A DNA stretch of 16,065 nt from Tubiluchus corallicola (Eukaryota; Animalia; Priapulida). Below are positions 1,434-10,534 of this stretch, piece by piece (positions within the stretch are counted from its first letter, which is position 1; each line of letters opens with the position of its first letter). Position numbers and translations under genes: made by a program. The notes under the pieces are model-generated. The model saw nothing but the letters and a program-made list of their open reading frames with translations, made no database searches and was not told the DNA's origin. The stretch lies in the NCBI GenBank assembly GCA_030141605.1, contig JAQGDQ010002431.1, positions 1 to 16,065 of the forward strand, written 5' to 3'.

Positions 1434-4400
1434 ATTGTGAATTGCTTTTAAATTGTATCTTTGTATAGGTGCGGTTAGATCACCAACAAATAGATGGCTG
1501 TTGTGAATTGCTTTTAAATTGTATCTTTGTATAGGACGCCCGTTTACAAGTTGTTGGGCTACTTCGTTGTGAATTGCTTTTAAATTGTATCTTTGTATAG
1601 GATTACATAAAAACGCAGCAGACGCAGGTGGTTGTGAATTGCTTTTAAATTGTATCTTTGTATAGGGGGTGGCCCTCGAGCAATAGAAATGACGGGGTTG
1701 TGAATTGCTTTTAAATTGTATCTTTGTATAGGCTCCTTAGCTATTTCCAGTTCTTGAGACTTGTTGTGAATTGCTTTTAAATTGTATCTTTGTATAGGTT
1801 CGAGAGAATTTTCGCTCAGTCTTTCTTTGTTGTGAATTGCTTTTAAATTGTATCTTTGTATAGGGGAATTTCTTTTGGACTGAATCACGTTATGTTGTGA
1901 ATTGCTTTTAAATTGTATCTTTGTATAGGATAAAGTGGCAACGAAAAAAACAAAAGAAAGTTGTGAATTGCTTTTAAATTGTATCTTTGTATAGGCCCGG
2001 GTAAGATTCGAGAAACTCCTCTGAAGTTGTGAATTGCTTTTAAATTGTATCTTTGTATAGGTTCAAAATAATAATCAGGATAATTGCTTTCGTTGTGAAT
2101 TGCTTTTAAATTGTATCTTTGTATAGGTTTCCTTACGGAATTAGTTGTGAGCGGTAAGTTGTGAATTGCTTTTAAATTGTATCTTTGTATAGGAGTGCAA
2201 AATTCAATGTTTGAGCACTTGGGTTGTGAATTGCTTTTAAATTGTATCTTTGTATAGGTAAGAAATTTTCCATTTTGCGTAACCGTAGTTGTGAATTGCT
2301 TTTAAATTGTATCTTTGTATAGGTGTGAACTCTTGAAAAAACATTTTCAATGGTTGTGAATTGCTTTTAAATTGTATCTTTGTATAGGCATAAACGACAT
2401 AATAATAAACAAATTTTAGTTGTGAATTGCTTTTAAATTGTATCTTTGTATAGGTAACTGTACGCCGTTTGCTAACTATTTTTGTTGTGAATTGCTTTTA
2501 AATTGTATCTTTGTATAGGGATTATTGTGTAAGTAAAATAGAGGTTTCTGTTGTGAATTGCTTTTAAATTGTATCTTTGTATAGGAAATCTTATTGACCT
2601 TGTTCTAAATGATCTGTTGTGAATTGCTTTTAAATTGTATCTTTGTATAGGCAACAGTTTCAACGATGACAGAGGTTTCTGGTTGTGAATTGCTTTTAAA
2701 TTGTATCTTTGTATAGGAGCTGACTGTGGCTATAGAACGCTTAGAGGGTTGTGAATTGCTTTTAAATTGTATCTTTGTATAGGATCTAGGGCAGGTATCC
2801 AGTTCTCAACTGAGTTGTGAATTGCTTTTAAATTGTATCTTTGTATAGGCTCTCTAACGGACTTGAGTTTTTTTCTAAAGTTGTGAATTGCTTTTAAATT
2901 GTATCTTTGTATAGGGCCCGCCACAAAATAGAGCTGCGTATCCGAGTTGTGAATTGCTTTTAAATTGTATCTTTGTATAGGATCATATCGTGGCTAAGTT
3001 TCACATTTTAGTTGTGAATTGCTTTTAAATTGTATCTTTGTATAGGTGCTATCATTGTTGCGAAAACATCTTCTGCGTTGTGAATTGCTTTTAAATTGTA
3101 TCTTTGTATAGGTTCAAGCACGTTTTTCAATTTTTGCATTAGTTGTGAATTGCTTTTAAATTGTATCTTTGTATAGGACGCAACTTATCGCCCAAAAAGC
3201 AAGAATTGTTGTGAATTGCTTTTAAATTGTATCTTTGTATAGGCCTGCGGCGTCTTTTACTATTACGTTTTCAGTTGTGAATTGCTTTTAAATTGTATCT
3301 TTGTATAGGAAGGGCGGTTAAAAATACAACCGAAGAGGCGTTGTGAATTGCTTTTAAATTGTATCTTTGTATAGGATGTTGAAAAGTGAAAGTGTGCGAG
3401 TTGCGTTGTGAATTGCTTTTAAATTGTATCTTTGTATAGGCAGACGCTTTCGAGCCGTATTACTGCTCTTGTTGTGAATTGCTTTTAAATTGTATCTTTG
3501 TATAGGTAGCCCATTAAAGATAGAAGGGACTAATCAGTTGTGAATTGCTTTTAAATTGTATCTTTGTATAGGGAAAGAAAAGCCGTCGTATATGATTTAC
3601 GGGTTGTGAATTGCTTTTAAATTGTATCTTTGTATAGGGAAAGAAAAGCCGTCGTATATGATTTATGGGTTGTGAATTGCTTTTAAATTGTATCTTTGTA
3701 TAGGGGAAAGTGAGATTACCGTTGCTGGGTTTGAGTTGTGAATTGCTTTTAAATTGTATCTTTGTATAGGGTTCGTTGAAAAAGCTAAGCAGTGCGTGGG
3801 TTGTGAATTGCTTTTAAATTGTATCTTTGTATAGGACATAATGGGTTGTTCAAACAAATCGAAGAGTTGTGAATTGCTTTTAAATTGTATCTTTGTATAG
3901 GGAAAGATGCTAAATCTTACGGTTTCGTGACGTTGTGAATTGCTTTTAAATTGTATCTTTGTATAGGTCGTAATTTTGTAACGGCAGCTCTTAATAGTTG
4001 TGAATTGCTTTTAAATTGTATCTTTGTATAGGTCGACCTTCAGATCCTTACTGGGAGCGTGCGTTGTGAATTGCTTTTAAATTGTATCTTTGTATAGGAC
4101 AATAAAGCAGTGTCTGAACAGATGGCGGGTTGTGAATTGCTTTTAAATTGTATCTTTGTATAGGTCAGGAAGCATTCAACCAACTGGTAAACGGGTTGTG
4201 AATTGCTTTTAAATTGTATCTTTGTATAGGTATTCGGATTTAGGAACGACCGTCTCGGACGTTGTGAATTGCTTTTAAATTGTATCTTTGTATAGGCGTA
4301 GCTTTGTTTGCAAATATTAACAATAGTTGTGAATTGCTTTTAAATTGTATCTTTGTATAGGTTTTAACAGAAACAAGATTTGAACCCGTGCGTTGTGAAT

Positions 4401-4624
4401 TGCTTTTAAATTGTATCTTTGTATAGGAGATAATCAGATGGTGGTAGCTGGATATGCGTTGTGAATTGCTTTTAAATTGTATCTTTGTATAGGCCTCTCG
4501 CCAGTAGGTAGGTGGGAGAACGTGTTGTGAATTGCTTTTAAATTGTATCTTTGTATAGGAGCACGCAAAATCAAATGTTGACGGGATAGTTGTGAATTGC
4601 TTTTAAATTGTATCTTTGTATAGG
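1434..4624 (+). CRISPR. Type II-C CRISPR array, 49 repeats of GTTGTGAATTGCTTTTAAATTGTATCTTTGTATAGG (36 bp) and 48 spacers (35 of 30 bp, 13 of 29 bp)
   Basis: Repeats enumerated by hand from 1434 (first base A instead of G) to 4589-4624; all others appear identical. Plus orientation is supported by tracrRNA complementarity to the GTTGTGAATTGCT end, a TATCTTTG promoter-like motif in each repeat, and a terminator after the last repeat. Confidence 0.98.
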
Positions 4625-4653
4625 GTATTGCTTTCAATGCCCTATGCTTTTTT
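4618..4653 (+). terminator. Intrinsic terminator closing the array transcript
   Basis: GTATAGGGTATTG-CTTT-CAATGCCCTATGC forms a 13-bp stem (2 G-U pairs) followed by TTTTTT. The left arm includes the last 7 nt of repeat 49. Confidence 0.75.
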
Positions 4654-4692
4654 CCTTTTAGCGTGTTTGGGGAGTGAAAAAATAATTATTTT

Positions 4693-4748
4693 TTAGAATA
4701 GATATAACTGCTATGTAGGATTTTCCATTTCTGTAAGTTAACGTTGTG
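4693..4748 (-). pseudogene. Decayed duplicate of the cas2 3' end
   Basis: Translates HN-(frameshift)-*LTEMENPT*QLYLF*, versus cas2 [20 protein letters not shown]. Core 4715-4739 matches 5563-5587 at 23/25 nt. Confidence 0.85.
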
Positions 4749-4810
4749 GTTTTTTTATATGAAATTTAATTATTTTGTATTTATTTTAATTTTAAATCAA
4801 AATTTAGTTG

Positions 4811-4818
4811 TATATTTG
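4811..4818 (+). promoter_or_regulatory. Putative Bacteroidetes -7 promoter element for the mini-array RNA
   Basis: TATATTTG fits TAnnTTTG and lies ~40 nt upstream of the degenerate repeat. No clean TTTG -33 element at canonical spacing. Confidence 0.5.
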
Positions 4819-4857
4819 TTTTTTCACCTATATATTATTAGGTAAGAGAATATAGGA

Positions 4858-4946
4858 ATTGTGAATTGCTTTTAAATTGTATCTTGTATAGGAAACTCTC
4901 ATAAACTTCTTTGATTGCCTTTGTTGTGAATTGCTTTTAAATTGTA
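4858..4946 (+). CRISPR. Detached mini-array: degenerate repeat, 30-bp spacer, truncated repeat
   Basis: 4858-4892 ATTGTGAATTGCTTTTAAATTGTATCTTGTATAGG (G1A, one T deleted); spacer 4893-4922 AAACTCTCATAAACTTCTTTGATTGCCTTT; 4923-4946 is the first 24 nt of the repeat, after which it diverges. Confidence 0.9.
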
Positions 4947-5182
4947 CCTTATAAAAGCCACATATGCCCTTGATAGTTAATTTTTAAATAATTTAGGTAT
5001 TATCCTTTTGTAATAAAAAAATGCTTTCTTGAAAATTAGGGATAGTAATTTTTTAAACTTATTTTACTAAGAGTAAACGTCTTTCATATTTTTGATTAGA
5101 TAAAAGCCTTTAAAACTAACTCCTTTTCTTAAATTATCTATTATAGTGCTTAGTCCTCTTTCTGTGAAGCTAAAGATGTAAT

Positions 5183-5326
5183 AAAAACTGGCAGATACGG
5201 GAGATAAATTCAAAAACTACTGGCAGATTACGGTAGATAATTTCAAAAACAGCTGAAACAGCTGGTAGATTACGGGAGATAATTTCAAAAACAGCTGGTA
5301 GATAATTTCAAAAACAGCTGGTAGAT
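5183..5326. repeat. Imperfect tandem repeat, ~5 copies of AAAAACAGCTGGTAGAT(TACGGGAGAT)AATTTC (full units 23-42 bp, last copy partial)
   Basis: Unit starts at 5183, 5212, 5245, 5287 and 5310. Confidence 0.85.
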
Positions 5327-5414
5327 GATGAGGGATTTGCTGGCTATGAGGGATTTGCTGGCTATAAGGGATTTGCTGGCTATAAGCGATTATGTAACGA
5401 ATTATTTTGTTCAT
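5217..5414 (-). CDS. Hypothetical 65-aa repeat-rich, hydrophobic small protein; candidate Cas9-repressed gene or toxin
   Basis: ATG start in an AT-rich context downstream of a complete promoter (5499-5530); (Y/H)SQQIP x3 and YQLFLKLS-type repeats. No recognisable family, so it could be non-coding. Confidence 0.4.
   Translation of the reverse strand: MNKIIRYIIAYSQQIPYSQQIPHSQQIPHHLPAVFEIIYQLFLKLSPVIYQLFQLFLKLSTVICQ
5331..5384. repeat. 18-bp tandem repeat x3, AGGGATTTGCTGGCTATR
   Basis: Copies at 5331-5348, 5349-5366 and 5367-5384. Confidence 0.95.
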
Positions 5415-5498
5415 TTCATTTAAAAATAAATTAACTTCTTCCTATATTACTTACCCAATAATAAGTTATATTCACAACTAAAATTTTAAAAGGAACAA

Positions 5499-5530
5499 CA
5501 AATATAAATATTTTAAAAACAAAAAACAAA
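5499..5530 (-). promoter_or_regulatory. Putative Bacteroidetes sigma-70 promoter for the small ORF
   Basis: Minus strand TTTG (5530-5527), N20, TATATTTG (5506-5499): a full match to TTTG-N19-21-TAnnTTTG. Confidence 0.65.
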
Positions 5531-5534
5531 AAAA

Positions 5535-5879
<345 letters not shown>

Positions 5880-6779
5880 TTATTTTGGAAACTGTGGATA
5901 TTTTATTTTTCTCGTTTCTCCTGCCAAGCACTTTGCCAACGAAGCCGTAGTTTGTGTGGCAGCTATTTGTAGGGGGCTTGTTTTTTTATTGATTTTCACA
6001 TCTATTTGTCCAATACTTAGAAGTTTTGCTTTGTTTTCTTTACTTAGTTCCAAGTTTATCAGTGTACCTGTATTTTCTACTATTTTATAGACTATAGCAT
6101 CTACAAAAGGGCGGTAAGGTTCCATAATATCATCAGCAAGGCAGTAGGCGTTGTATTGATTTTGGTGGTGGATGCCTAAAGTGGGGTTAAGCCCAGTGCC
6201 TACCAATGCACGGGCTATTATAGCTCTTAGAATGGCATAGCCATAGTTGAGCAAGTTGTTAGGGTATTTCCCTTCGGGCTGCCTAATGAAGTTGGGTATA
6301 TAGCTTTTCCAATAATATGCCGAGGCTGTTCCTTCTGTATTGGTCGTATCTCCGCTTTTTACTTCTTTGGTAAGGGCTTTTAGCCGTGAAGAGGGTTTGC
6401 CTGTTGTTTCTAATACGCTGGCTTGATTGGCAATTTTGGCTACTATGGTTTGTTGCCACAGCTGTTTTTTCAATGCAATAGATGCGCTGATTTGCTCTCT
6501 CAACCTTTTGCTTTGTAGGGTGTTGCCTTCGAGGGATAGCATTATTCCTATGGGCATATGCTTGTCATTGCAGCTAATAACTGCTACATTGTTGCTTAGT
6601 AAGAATTGTAGAGCATAGTGTGTAATAGTTATACGATGGTGGTCGAGATACACTACTGCAAGGTCTTCCACAGCTATTTGCCCTATGGGTTCTTTGTTGT
6701 CTGTATTGTTGATTGTAAGTTGTTGATTTTTTATTTTTAGGTAGGCAGGGCTGTCAAGGTAAAGGGTACGTTTTATCAC
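5880..6779 (-). CDS. cas1: Type II CRISPR-associated endonuclease Cas1
   Basis: NLLNYGYAILRA, LGIHHQNQYNAYCLADDIMEPYRPFVD motifs; GTG start overlaps the cas9 stop (GTGA). Confidence 0.97.
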   Translation of the reverse strand: MIKRTLYLDSPAYLKIKNQQLTINNTDNKEPIGQIAVEDLAVVYLDHHRITITHYALQFLLSNNVAVISCNDKHMPIGIMLSLEGNTLQSKRLREQISASIALKKQLWQQTIVAKIANQASVLETTGKPSSRLKALTKEVKSGDTTNTEGTASAYYWKSYIPNFIRQPEGKYPNNLLNYGYAILRAIIARALVGTGLNPTLGIHHQNQYNAYCLADDIMEPYRPFVDAIVYKIVENTGTLINLELSKENKAKLLSIGQIDVKINKKTSPLQIAATQTTASLAKCLAGETRKIKYPQFPK

Positions 6780-9700
6780 TCTCCTATTTTTATGATATTG
6801 CCTAAGTGGTTTACTCTTACTTTTGTAAGCCTATGTAAGTGTTGGTTAGACTGAATTTGTTCCCAAGTAATGCCTCTTAGTTCTTTATCGTTTCTATTTA
6901 CCGTAGTTTCTAAATGGTGTCTAAACATAATATCAAATGCTCCTGATTTTTTTTTACTCATTTTTTGTAGTCTGAATAGTTTTTTACTTATTATAGGGCG
7001 GTTGTCAGTATGAAAGAAATCTATATCTTCAGGTTTTAGGTCAAACACAAATAGGTCGTTTATTTGCATAGAGTATTGAAATTCTCCTTTTTCGGTATCT
7101 CGTCTGTCTATCACAGTGGTGAGTTTTCCGTTGTTTGCTTCTATATTTTGCTTGGCTATATTTACGGCATCAAAAAATGGAACAACTTTTTCTATATATT
7201 TACCTTCCTCACTTTTGTAAATAAGTGCATGGTGGTTGCCTCCTTTGGCTACAAAGTCTATGTTCTTCCCTTTTTCGTTTTTACGCAGTGATATAAGTTT
7301 ACTATTTTCGAATACTTTAACCGATTTTATCTCTATTTCTTTTTTCTTGTTGAGCCACAAGGGGTTTTCACCTAGGTCTTTAAAGGCTTCTTTTACGTTT
7401 CCTTCGTAAGAGGCTATTCGGTCTTCTACTATCTCTTTTATTTGGGAATCTACTATCTTTTGCACCTGTGCAGGGGTGATACTACTAAGAGAAGTACGCT
7501 TGGTGTATGTCTCCTCCCATATAGTTACTTGTGCAATAGGCTTGTCTTTATAAAGTAGGGGCTTTTTCTTCAATGTGGCTGAAGAAAAGGCTTTTTTAGG
7601 GTCGTTGTTGTGTTTGGCTAAATGGTCTTTTACCAGTTGTTTGATGTGTTCATCAGCAATATTTTCTGTAAGTTTAAAGCTGGGTTTGAGGGCTACTTTC
7701 TTGTATTTTTTTACTTTACCCATTATGGTTTCCTCGTGCAGTCTACCCCGTGGTGTCCAGCATATTTGTGGAGGTTTTATTTCTTTTGTTTTAATTTTGT
7801 TGATGTTTTTACTCATTACTTTAGACTTGCCTTTTTTGAAGGAGATAAATATACTTTCAAGGTGCTTTTCTGCTTCTTTTCTAAGGTTAGGCATAGGACG
7901 TGGGTAGTTAAAGCCTTCGAGTTCTGCATACGATTTTAGGTTAAATTCTTTTTCCTCCAACAATTTTTTCTTTTGCTCTTGGGTTAAGTTGCCTTTTTTT
8001 TCTTGATAAATTTTGTTTAAGTTATTGAGTTTAAAAATTATTTTTTGGTCGGTCAATGCACATATCAAGGCATCTATAGCGTGGTGTCGGTGGTCGTCTC
8101 TTTTTGTCCAATTCACTATATCCCATACATTTTTTGGTCTCCCCTCTTTGTCTTTTATTTTTCTTTGTACTACCTGTCCTTTTTCTTTGTATTTGGGGAA
8201 ATTAATTTCTCTCATCAGTTCATTCAATCCCCACTCTCTACGTAAAAAGTCCGTTATTTGCCCTGTAGTAGTTAATACTTTGGGACATATTTGCTTCAGC
8301 ATTTTTACGGTTTCTTTGGCTATGTATTGTGTGTCTTTCAACATTCTTTCCACAAAGTCTTCAGGTATTTCTTCTCCTTTGGTCATTAGATTGTTAAATT
8401 TGGTTTTGCTAATTTTTCCTTTGCCATTTTTGTATAGTTCGTTCACTGTTTCTATATATTGTGTAAGGGCTTGTTCGCCTTTATTCTTCATAAAATCGTA
8501 GGCAGTATGTTGATCTTTGCTTCTGTTACACTCTCTATGTGCTATGATGTAATTACTAAGCGAATTGTTGAAAGAGCGCGATTTGGGTATGATGTGTTCT
8601 ATTTCTGCAAGTCCTTGTATCATATCTGTTTTACTAATGGTTCGAAAGCAGTATAAACATTGCTTATTGGTTTCTTCCCATAATTTGTATCTTTTTACAT
8701 CTCTACCGTTTACTATTCTGTAATTGTATTCATCTTCCAGGGTTTGTCTTATTTCTTCGTTTTCTCTTTTATTTTTTGAGTTTAATTTCGTTATTTGGCT
8801 TCTGGTTTTGGCATTGTTTTTTAGTTCTCGGGCAAGCTCTACACGTATTTCGTCTATTTTTCCGTGTTCCTCTATTATTTGGTTCACCACATTTACTACT
8901 TGGTTGAGCAGTTGTTCTATCACAGGATTGCGTAAACTGTTGGGAGCTACTGGGTCTAATTTTTCTTTGAGTTCTACTTCTTTGGTTTTATAGCCTACTC
9001 GGTCGCAGGCTTCGTTGTACATTAGTCCATCTTGCAAATGAGGCAATAGTTTTCTAATGGCTTTGGTAGACAATCTACCATAGTCGGAGGTATAACCTAC
9101 ATTGTCGGCTATGACTTGTGCTTGTTCTTTAGTAAAATCAAAGCGTTTTACTAAAGTATTAACTACGTCTTTCTCCGAAGGCAAAGAGTAAGTAATATGC
9201 CATAGTTCGAACAATCCTCCTTTTTCATCATTCTTAGTGGGGTCGAACCCAAGATATGGACTTGTGTTTTTTATGCCTGCTTTTACTAAGGCTTTTTTTA
9301 AGGTATTGTATGTTTTTGCTCCGTCTAATTCTTTATAGTTGATGTACCATTTTTTGTTGTATCCAAGTGTTTCTAATATTTTTGTTTCGGTTAGTCTACT
9401 TTGGGCATTTGTATTTTTGCATTGGAATAAAGCGTCGAACAGTTCTTTTTTTTGTTCGTTGCTGGGCGATAATTTTTCTCCTGCATAGTTTGTAACTTCT
9501 ATATTGTTGATTTGCTGCCATATTCTAAACATTTCAAAATAAGGTGAGCTTTTAGGCGTTGCTTTACATCCTTTCTCAAACTGGCAGTCAGAAACCAATC
9601 CTTTTTGGCTTTTAAGAGGACGTTGGTAGAATATGGTTTGCTTTACAAAGGTTTCTTTGAGTTTCTCTGTCAAAACATTGGGGTAAAATTGCTTTTGGGT

Positions 9701-10381
9701 TTCCCATATTTTGTCAAATTCTTTTTGGTAAGAGGTTCTGAAATAAGGGCGGTTTCTTATTCTTTCTTCTTCGCGGGTTTTCTTAGCTGATAGTCGCTTT
9801 CTTATTTTTTCTTTTTCTTCGTCTGAGGTTTCATTATCTTGTAGTAGAGAGTAAAGATAAAGAACTCGCCCTATAGTTCTGACTTCTCCTGTTTTCTTAT
9901 CTATCAGTTCTTTTTCCAGTTCTGCTATTCTTTTCTTATAATCTGTTTCTTTTTCTTCTTTGTTCTGGGCTTTTCTGTTGCTTAAAAATCCTCTTCTTTG
10001 GTTGAGGTGTATAAATACTCGCCCTATTTCTTCGAGCGAGAGTTTTTTTTCTACTGCCTTGTCTCTTAGTTTGTAAAGTTGTATTGTGGTAGGTTCTATA
10101 AGTAGTTTTTCAGAAGGGAACATATTATTTTCTTTTAATATGTTGTACAGGTTCTTTTTTCTAAGTTTATGCCTTTGGTTGTTTCTTCTAGCTCCTCTTT
10201 TTGCTGTTCTTTCTGCATTTTTGCTTGCCGTGTTTCCTTGGTAAAAGTTGCCGTGAAAATCTGGGTCTTCTGGAACAATACGCACTGCAAGTTTTTCTAT
10301 TTCCCTTTTAGAGCCTTCTTCTTTTATCAATGCTGCCCCCACAGAACTAACGCCCAAGTCTAAGCCTAAAATTTTTTTCAT
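6776..10381 (-). CDS. cas9: Type II-C CRISPR RNA-guided endonuclease Cas9 (1201 aa)
   Basis: RuvC-I ILGLDLGVSSVG, Arg-rich bridge helix, RuvC-II IRVELAREL, HNH EIEHIIPKS...N...HRECNRSK, RuvC-III DHRHHAIDA. No csn2 or cas4 in the operon. Confidence 0.98.
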   Translation of the reverse strand: MKKILGLDLGVSSVGAALIKEEGSKREIEKLAVRIVPEDPDFHGNFYQGNTASKNAERTAKRGARRNNQRHKLRKKNLYNILKENNMFPSEKLLIEPTTIQLYKLRDKAVEKKLSLEEIGRVFIHLNQRRGFLSNRKAQNKEEKETDYKKRIAELEKELIDKKTGEVRTIGRVLYLYSLLQDNETSDEEKEKIRKRLSAKKTREEERIRNRPYFRTSYQKEFDKIWETQKQFYPNVLTEKLKETFVKQTIFYQRPLKSQKGLVSDCQFEKGCKATPKSSPYFEMFRIWQQINNIEVTNYAGEKLSPSNEQKKELFDALFQCKNTNAQSRLTETKILETLGYNKKWYINYKELDGAKTYNTLKKALVKAGIKNTSPYLGFDPTKNDEKGGLFELWHITYSLPSEKDVVNTLVKRFDFTKEQAQVIADNVGYTSDYGRLSTKAIRKLLPHLQDGLMYNEACDRVGYKTKEVELKEKLDPVAPNSLRNPVIEQLLNQVVNVVNQIIEEHGKIDEIRVELARELKNNAKTRSQITKLNSKNKRENEEIRQTLEDEYNYRIVNGRDVKRYKLWEETNKQCLYCFRTISKTDMIQGLAEIEHIIPKSRSFNNSLSNYIIAHRECNRSKDQHTAYDFMKNKGEQALTQYIETVNELYKNGKGKISKTKFNNLMTKGEEIPEDFVERMLKDTQYIAKETVKMLKQICPKVLTTTGQITDFLRREWGLNELMREINFPKYKEKGQVVQRKIKDKEGRPKNVWDIVNWTKRDDHRHHAIDALICALTDQKIIFKLNNLNKIYQEKKGNLTQEQKKKLLEEKEFNLKSYAELEGFNYPRPMPNLRKEAEKHLESIFISFKKGKSKVMSKNINKIKTKEIKPPQICWTPRGRLHEETIMGKVKKYKKVALKPSFKLTENIADEHIKQLVKDHLAKHNNDPKKAFSSATLKKKPLLYKDKPIAQVTIWEETYTKRTSLSSITPAQVQKIVDSQIKEIVEDRIASYEGNVKEAFKDLGENPLWLNKKKEIEIKSVKVFENSKLISLRKNEKGKNIDFVAKGGNHHALIYKSEEGKYIEKVVPFFDAVNIAKQNIEANNGKLTTVIDRRDTEKGEFQYSMQINDLFVFDLKPEDIDFFHTDNRPIISKKLFRLQKMSKKKSGAFDIMFRHHLETTVNRNDKELRGITWEQIQSNQHLHRLTKVRVNHLGNIIKIGE

Positions 10382-10386
10382 TTTTT

Positions 10387-10417
10387 TTTGTTTTTATCTT
10401 TTAAGTTTCTATCTTTG
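10387..10417 (+). promoter_or_regulatory. Putative tracrRNA promoter
   Basis: TTTG (10387-10390), N19, TATCTTTG (10410-10417), immediately before the anti-repeat. Confidence 0.65.
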
Positions 10418-10418
10418 T

Positions 10419-10490
10419 AGAGCAATTCACAATAACGGATTATTCCGTTGTGAAAACATTCAGGGCGGTATTAACTATCGCCCTTTTTTT
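10419..10490 (+). ncRNA. tracrRNA
   Basis: Anti-repeat AGAGCAATTCACAAT pairs with repeat nt 1-15 (two G-U), followed by hairpin AACGGA-TTAT-TCCGTT and terminator AGGGCGGTA-TTAAC-TATCGCCCT-T6. Ends are approximate. Confidence 0.88.
10462..10490 (+). terminator. Intrinsic terminator of tracrRNA
   Basis: 9-bp stem with one G-U pair and a 5-nt loop, then a T tract. Confidence 0.8.
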
Positions 10491-10501
10491 GTTTTATTCA
10501 T

Positions 10502-10534
10502 CAAATATAATACAAAAAAGATAATTTTTACAAA
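10502..10534 (-). promoter_or_regulatory. Putative cas9-cas1-cas2 promoter
   Basis: Minus strand TTTG (10534-10531), N21, TATATTTG (10509-10502). Confidence 0.6.

Follow-up and report, generated by a model that had tools for sequence, protein, structure and literature searches.

We favour, with moderate confidence, the reading that a cassette between cas2 and the array of a type II-C CRISPR locus would be a scaRNA-like Cas9 repressor of a small open reading frame (ORF), working now or formerly. The locus lies in a 16,065-nt stretch of the Tubiluchus corallicola assembly (contig JAQGDQ010002431.1), hereafter called the window. The reading is drawn from a spacer-sized match that sits flush against a stray repeat and falls in the predicted leader of the ORF, and from a module in a second genome, G464, which has the same geometry with another sequence and thus supports a scaRNA-like repression design. 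That this design is real seems probable to us; that the window copy is active at present can be put forward only tentatively, and a toxin or addiction role for the ORF is doubtful.

The type II-C locus and the cassette beside cas2

The window carries a Bacteroidota-type system with cas9, cas1, cas2, a tracrRNA and an array, without csn2 or cas4, which is the composition of type II-C. Its main elements are as follows.

1434..4624, forward strand: main CRISPR array of 49 repeats, each 36 nt long, with 48 spacers
5535..6779, reverse strand: cas2 and cas1 (cas1_NMENI)
6776..10381, reverse strand: cas9, an uninterrupted frame of 1201 aa that encodes RuvC and HNH domains
10410..10487, forward strand: tracrRNA with its own -7 box and a 13-nt anti-repeat at 10421-10433 (elsewhere given as ~10421-10487)

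The nearest relatives of this cas9 are ~52-55% identical. In the main array a TAnnTTTG box, which we take to be the Bacteroidota -7 consensus, closes each repeat, so that transcription of crRNAs probably begins within the array, on the forward strand; since the forward strand of the repeat is complementary to the 13-nt anti-repeat, these crRNAs read spacer and then repeat. The oldest repeat of the array (1434) begins with A.

Such loci show some further features. Spacers 33 and 34 (window 3573-3668) are adjacent, one base apart. At 4613-4655 the 3′ end of the last repeat and the leader form a hairpin followed by a T run, likely a crRNA terminator. The promoter box of cas9 (10509, reverse strand) lies beyond the tracrRNA gene (10382-10520), so the cas9 mRNA would run antisense through the tracrRNA. 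Small inserted ORFs occur in the cas2-array gap of loci L092 and L095 and in the cas9-cas1 gap of L011, with motifs that we take to resemble those of GIY-YIG nucleases and REP-associated transposase.

The gap between cas2 and the array measures 910 nt in the window; among 46 related loci, 37 have a gap of <200 nt. The window gap holds the following features.

4677..4748, reverse strand: duplicate, now decayed, of the terminal ~65 nt of cas2 (alignment score 27, 0/1000 shuffles)
4811..4818, forward strand: TAnnTTTG (-7) box, predicted promoter of the guide RNA
4833..4857, forward strand: guide, 25 nt, abutting the stray repeat and matching the target
4858..4892, forward strand: stray repeat 1, with G1A and an intact 13-nt tracr-pairing handle
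4893..4922, forward strand: mini-array spacer 2 (best score in the window 10, p 0.83)
4923..4958, forward strand: stray repeat 2, perfect over its first 24 nt and decayed over the remaining 12 nt
5067..5216, reverse strand: in-frame continuation past the TAG of the small ORF, 49 codons, no homolog
5217..5414, reverse strand: small ORF of 65 aa with ATG at 5414, putative regulated gene
5432..5439, reverse strand: PAM position of the target, AGAAGTTA
5440..5463, reverse strand: target, in the predicted 5′ leader of the small ORF
5499..5530, reverse strand: predicted Bacteroidota-type promoter of the small ORF (TTG, 20 nt, TATATTTG), directly behind cas2

The copy of the cas2 end adjoins the main leader and marks the left edge of the cassette; because the 3′ end of cas2 recurs here in decayed form, 4749-5534 appears to be an acquired or duplicated block. 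A contig of sequencing run X1, possibly the window's own sample, is identical to 4590-5248; none of the contigs compared reaches the target. When the cassette DNA was compared with plasmids and 401 genomes, the matches listed comprised only repeats and AT-rich stretches, and an Rfam search returned CRISPR repeats only, for which reason we dropped the idea that the tandem repeats in the ORF could be a type III antitoxin. Neither a candidate duplicated leader (636/2000 shuffles) nor a candidate pseudo-repeat under the guide promoter (507/3000 shuffles) was significant.

The stray repeat that follows the guide is the first of a two-repeat mini-array, whose internal spacer 2 has no target within the window. 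Both repeats keep the tracr handle (12/13 and 13/13) and both have lost the internal promoter, in stray repeat 1 through a 1-nt deletion that destroys the -7 box. The earlier note on this DNA had held that the pairing handle was retained, and a 13-bp duplex with the tracrRNA is indeed predicted, at -17.3 kcal/mol with G1A versus -17.6 kcal/mol for the array repeat. Its further remark that G1A creates a pair with tracr U10433 is right insofar as the anti-repeat ends at T10433 of the DNA; the change brings no gain in energy, however, and its reading as a special adaptation is not supported, as it is common in the oldest repeats of II-C arrays. The -7 motif reported at 4811 is likewise present as a TAnnTTTG box on the forward strand, with no TTG at the usual spacing of 19-21 nt, and the predicted transcript starts at ~4823-4825. 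The guide can fold onto its own seed, with a predicted unpaired fraction of 0.29-0.53 (starts 4823-4830) against an array median of 0.55. As a separate observation, locus L108 carries at 1501-1530 a lone 28-nt copy that is identical to the window's stray repeat and starts with A; it lies near the contig end, with no array within the 1950 nt examined.

The guide-target match, the facing ORF and the PAM position

The alignment of the guide to 5463-5440, followed by AGAAGTTA, reads as the earlier note gave it. From the 3′ end of the guide there are 9 matches, a bulge plus mismatch, 6 matches, a mismatch and 7 matches (22/25), and the bulge after the 9-nt seed is on the RNA side. The local alignment score of 17.5 was reached in 0/3000 shuffles when the comparison was with the intergenic region and in 2/500 when it was with the whole window; with the non-coding part of the first 11 kb, 2/6000 shuffles reached it, one of them flush with the repeat. 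The match is also spacer-sized, with no homology beyond the core (the scores upstream and downstream were reached in 1407/3000 and 1024/3000 shuffles). Array spacer 17 (2520-2549) matches 19/21 nt of the same target site (5443-5463), its 3′ end excluded, and scores 17, which the best of 48 shuffled spacers reaches in 4/150 rounds; this borderline match indicates that AT-rich chance matches of such size occur. Hence the score alone is not overwhelming, and it is the flush position that carries weight.

The full promoter claimed for 5530-5499 is borne out by a TAnnTTTG box at 5506 on the reverse strand with TTG 20 nt upstream. The target starts 43 nt below this box and ends 25 nt above the ATG, at ~+30 to +55 from the inferred start of the ORF transcript, a start placed by the usual -7 spacing. 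It overlaps a short palindrome.

Of the stretch from the ATG at 5414 to 5067, the first 65 codons form the small ORF, and a TAG at codon 66 cuts off the remainder. The 65 codons consist largely of 18-, 33-, 9- and 23-nt tandem repeats, of which the 23-nt repeat breaks the frame. An ORF of this length arises in 19/3000 shuffles, a figure inflated by the tandem repeats, and its codon signal is weak (0.105 versus 0.382 for cas2); the window ORF looks eroded. A phmmer search with the read-through found no homolog among 1.84 billion representatives, a 45-aa product of an alternative frame had no phmmer match (subject lengths 24-79), and ESM Atlas, Pfam, PADLOC, NCBIfam and phage tblastn returned no match for the ORF or its continuation. 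PHROGs gave two weak matches of unknown function (E 0.017 and 0.18). The toxin-like traits of the ORF are its small size and amphipathic character, and nothing else; the proposal of a toxin with addiction or abortive infection has found no footing in homologs or families for the ORF of either module.

Protospacers for spacers 1, 2 and 5 were found in contigs of runs X1 and X2, which come from one sample. The 3′ flanks of the spacer 1 and spacer 2 protospacers, CTGTCTAT and AAGTGTAT in phage-like contigs, share G3, T4, T6, A7 and T8. Set in register, the target flank AGAAGTTA has one of these five common positions (T6), with two at a shift of +1 and four at +2; at least four are reached at 61/1804 local sites. 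Compatibility of AGAAGTTA as a PAM is not supported, and the mismatch counts against present activity of the window copy, in a comparison that rests on two flanks from diverged phage variants, possibly escapers. To accommodate all three flanks, the PAM would have to be a loose one such as NNRNNT. The two phage flanks also belong to the oldest spacers, whose acquisition may have preceded the event behind the two cas2 ends.

Elsewhere, INPHARED phages held no protospacers for the arrays of the window, L011, L010 or G464, and exact scans of viral contigs for protospacers gave 0 matches in 6/6. Spacers 1, 2 and 5 (window 1470-1762) match two related 815-nt contigs, present in run X1 at 1.2-2.7x the depth of the host contig, whose flanking letters resemble a phage head-morphogenesis (MuF/gp7-like) gene. 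No PAM of CbCas9 was found in the available part of PMC13153721.

A module of the same geometry in G464

The survey drew on 80 larger loci together with 7 earlier ones; not counting the window, an array was detected alongside cas9 and cas2 in 74. Many loci were truncated, and screening was confined to GTTGT-type repeats. In these Bacteroidota II-C loci, 25 stand-alone handles in 18 loci were screened together with the oldest repeats. A significant flush match was obtained in 1/74 other loci, L155 of G464. From the ~120 guides screened over all searches, ~0.02-0.04 such matches are expected by chance.

The Cas9 of G464 (1518 aa) is identical to a protein recorded as Coprobacter tertius. Upstream of its tracrRNA, L155 holds three decayed repeats; the last of them comes with its own -7 box and with a 27-nt guide on a handle that starts with A. 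The match to the target, which is on the opposite strand, consists of a 10-nt seed, a bulge of 2 nt in the RNA and 13 matches distal to it, and its score of 19 was reached in 2/6000 shuffles, one flush. The target lies between a TATATTTG box, 46 nt upstream, and an ORF, 21 nt downstream, the corresponding distances in the window being 43 and 25 nt. This ORF faces the module, has 44 lysine-rich codons with a net charge of +12 and a length reached in 49/3000 shuffles, and is separated from the handle by a 17-bp hairpin; a peptide search with it returned only itself (subject lengths 24-77). Pairing of the handle with the tracrRNA is predicted at -15.7, versus -12.6 for the repeat of the adjacent array. 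The flank ACAAAAT fits NNAAA, a candidate PAM for the G464 Cas9; in the table of PMC8482600, NNAAA opens 6/13 of the Bacteroidota-type entries with 46-47-nt repeats that were examined. The guide sequences of the two modules are unrelated, and the modules share one 16-mer that starts at the promoter box (3/1000 shuffles).

The search of related II-C loci for covarying guide/target pairs, proposed in the earlier note, has thus given one module of the same geometry in 74 loci and no close relatives in which covariation could be seen. No such cassette occurs in the sequence examined of 13 related Cas9 loci with cas2, 40 extended upstream regions (13 handles) yielded 0 further modules, and the module is absent from 5 other genomes of the family of G464. 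A pattern search gave 15 sites in 13/401 genomes, with only G464 positive and 6 matches in a reversed-pattern control; 5 pattern sites from 291 genomes all lay in coding DNA and gave 0 modules. Other high-scoring candidates were set aside, in L167 and L170 with the match not flush with the repeat, and in L167 and L159 with matches that fall on dispersed repeats.

The survey also turned up arrangements of other kinds. In L131, L141, L145, L157, L159 and L161, stand-alone handles recur 110-150 nt before the oldest repeat, with distinctive 3′ tails and no local target found; they may represent another family of crRNA-like RNAs. Upstream of cas9 in L223 and L227, a tracr-like nexus sequence is followed directly by a repeat handle, an odd fusion. 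G464 has a second array (L247, L249) ~21 kb from cas9, whose repeat is closer to the module handle than is the repeat of the adjacent array.

Alternative readings, proposed mechanism and known systems

The window sequences might instead be a disarmed self-targeting spacer in a decaying duplicate array, with nothing regulated, in which the bulge and a loss of 1-2 nt at the spacer/repeat junction shifted the PAM out of register. The best PAM-like flank does lie at +2, and what looks like G1A at the junction could equally be a small deletion; two cas2 ends, eroded repeats and a broken ORF suit such an origin as well. For F. columnare, PMC8092290 (part of the text) describes II-C spacers that target their own genome and whose PAMs are missing or shifted, and PMC12080349 (part of the text) reports frequent mutation of the oldest repeats in II-C arrays, among them a first base changed from G to A in C. 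jejuni. Such decay would not predict, however, a dedicated promoter box at crRNA-like distance, the selective retention of both handles, or the same strand, spacings, bulge position and in-register NNAAA flank in G464, and we consider it unlikely.

It is less probable still that Cas9 represses the promoter while the real output is transcription into CRISPR elements, as with a Cas9-regulating scaRNA, running antisense to the array in the window and towards the tracrRNA and cas9 in G464. The targeted promoter of G464 is on the cas9 strand and holds the nearest canonical -7 box upstream (709 nt), the two ORFs are unrelated orphans, and Cas9-regulating scaRNAs sit in cas9 5′ UTRs or beside arrays, as far as the available text of 10.64898/2026.06.01.729453 goes. 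A canonical box is absent within 800 nt of cas9 in 12/36 loci, however, so that its absence is weak evidence; moreover, in G464 the 17-bp hairpin intervenes between ORF and handle, and the window promoter points away from the cas genes, and cas9 in the window has its own box at 10509. The pairing could also arise without any guide, through chance similarity of AT-rich DNA, a protein-binding site common to both places, or the ends of a small transposon or of an inverted duplication. The near-equal score of spacer 17 on the same site (4/150 family-wise) and the palindrome overlapping the target speak for such an origin, which we nevertheless judge very improbable given a flush position in 1/6000 shuffles, the recurrence in G464, and a match that extends on neither side of the core. 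Transposon terminal inverted repeats, which the earlier note had named as a refuting outcome, find no backing for the same reason: neither homology to element ends nor, by eye, a target-site duplication accompanies the two copies.

Under the scaRNA-like reading, the guide RNA would start near 4825, pair over 13 bp with the tracrRNA and load Cas9, bringing it to the ORF leader; the bulge behind the 9-nt seed would block cleavage, so that Cas9 would bind the site uncut and, parked there, lower transcription of the ORF. From the sequence we infer transcription, Cas9 loading, binding without cleavage and repression. The repression of the leader by Cas9/tracrRNA that had been proposed is supported by the flush, spacer-sized match and by G464. 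A usable PAM in the window copy and harm from the ORF product are the weakest steps. The 9-nt seed and the site at ~+30 to +55 also fall outside a published screen (at least 10 nt, -40 to +20; 10.64898/2026.06.01.729453). An exchange or duplication of the cas genes, which left two cas2 ends, may have orphaned the window copy, and that copy may be eroding; we class the module as scaRNA/CreA-like and possibly in decay here. On a broader and rather speculative view, which we think unlikely, these convergent modules of Bacteroidota II-C loci would be the type II counterpart of CreTA, in which a bulged scaRNA lets Cas9 silence a short orphan peptide toxin and loss or inhibition of Cas9 harms the cell, with independent origin or divergence in two Cas9 clades.

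If true, a small gene supervised by Cas9 inside II-C loci would mean that CRISPR addiction and anti-anti-CRISPR defence reach into type II as well. A co-encoded toxic gene under RNA-guided repression is documented for type I, and the known regulatory guides of Cas9 target cas9 itself or Francisella virulence genes. How cells let an active Cas9 bind without cutting would be illustrated by two natural guides, each bulged directly behind a seed of 9-10 nt, and since the second module belongs to a named gut species, a direct test of the idea is feasible. A Cas9-repressed small gene co-encoded in a II-C locus was not found in mostly non-subscription literature, including the accessible part of 10.1101/2024.10.29.618823; the supplementary tables of two bioRxiv surveys could list some. 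The portions available of two other studies predict II-C scaRNAs without targets (PMC6199352) and report mini-arrays, which that study took no further, in ~6% of type II loci (10.1101/2023.03.03.530964).

The closest known RNAs are the scaRNA of Francisella novicida (II-B) and the Cas9-regulating scaRNAs of II-A systems, which according to the available text (10.64898/2026.06.01.729453) combine a guide with a repeat-like handle outside the array and pair with the tracrRNA, as the window does through its 13-bp duplex. The partial match near a promoter and the predicted binding without cutting are alike, too. That study reports 32 cas9-targeting scaRNAs, describes repression by a scaRNA of a target put into a 5′ UTR, and has no 'Bacteroid' in its main text. 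In contrast, the modules here belong to II-C of Bacteroidota and target the leader of a co-encoded, convergent orphan ORF rather than cas9 or a distant lipoprotein gene, with a 9-10-nt seed, a bulge and a long distal match at a site farther from the start. Compared with the perfect 3′ match of at least 10-11 nt in scaRNAs, the window has 9 nt and G464 has 10 nt; the window target lies outside -40 to +20, and its PAM is doubtful.

The tracr-L of Streptococcus pyogenes resembles the window guide in reading like the transcribed strand, with the PAM downstream and a short seed, and its PAM and 9 PAM-proximal bases are essential (10.1101/2020.05.21.102756, part of the text). It is, however, a single RNA that binds from +2 and represses cas9, whereas the window guide needs the tracrRNA in trans and its target lies farther downstream, so the block would probably be weaker. 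The type I systems CreTA, CrePA and CRISIS, as described in the accessible parts of 10.1101/2024.01.05.574328, 10.1101/2024.12.27.630466 and PMC12737573, likewise place a degenerate mini-array in a cas locus beside a small gene whose promoter region is matched, and the window has such a mini-array with degenerate repeats beside its putative regulated gene. Those systems use Cascade, Cas6 processing and proven toxins, whereas here Cas9 is the only effector at the locus and would act with a tracrRNA, and toxicity is unsupported. Finally, in the ecrRNA of the oldest II-C repeat the sequence upstream of an A-start first repeat can guide (PMC12080349, part of the text), as proposed here; ecrRNAs are usually suppressed and have no target, whereas the window has a promoter box and a matching local target.
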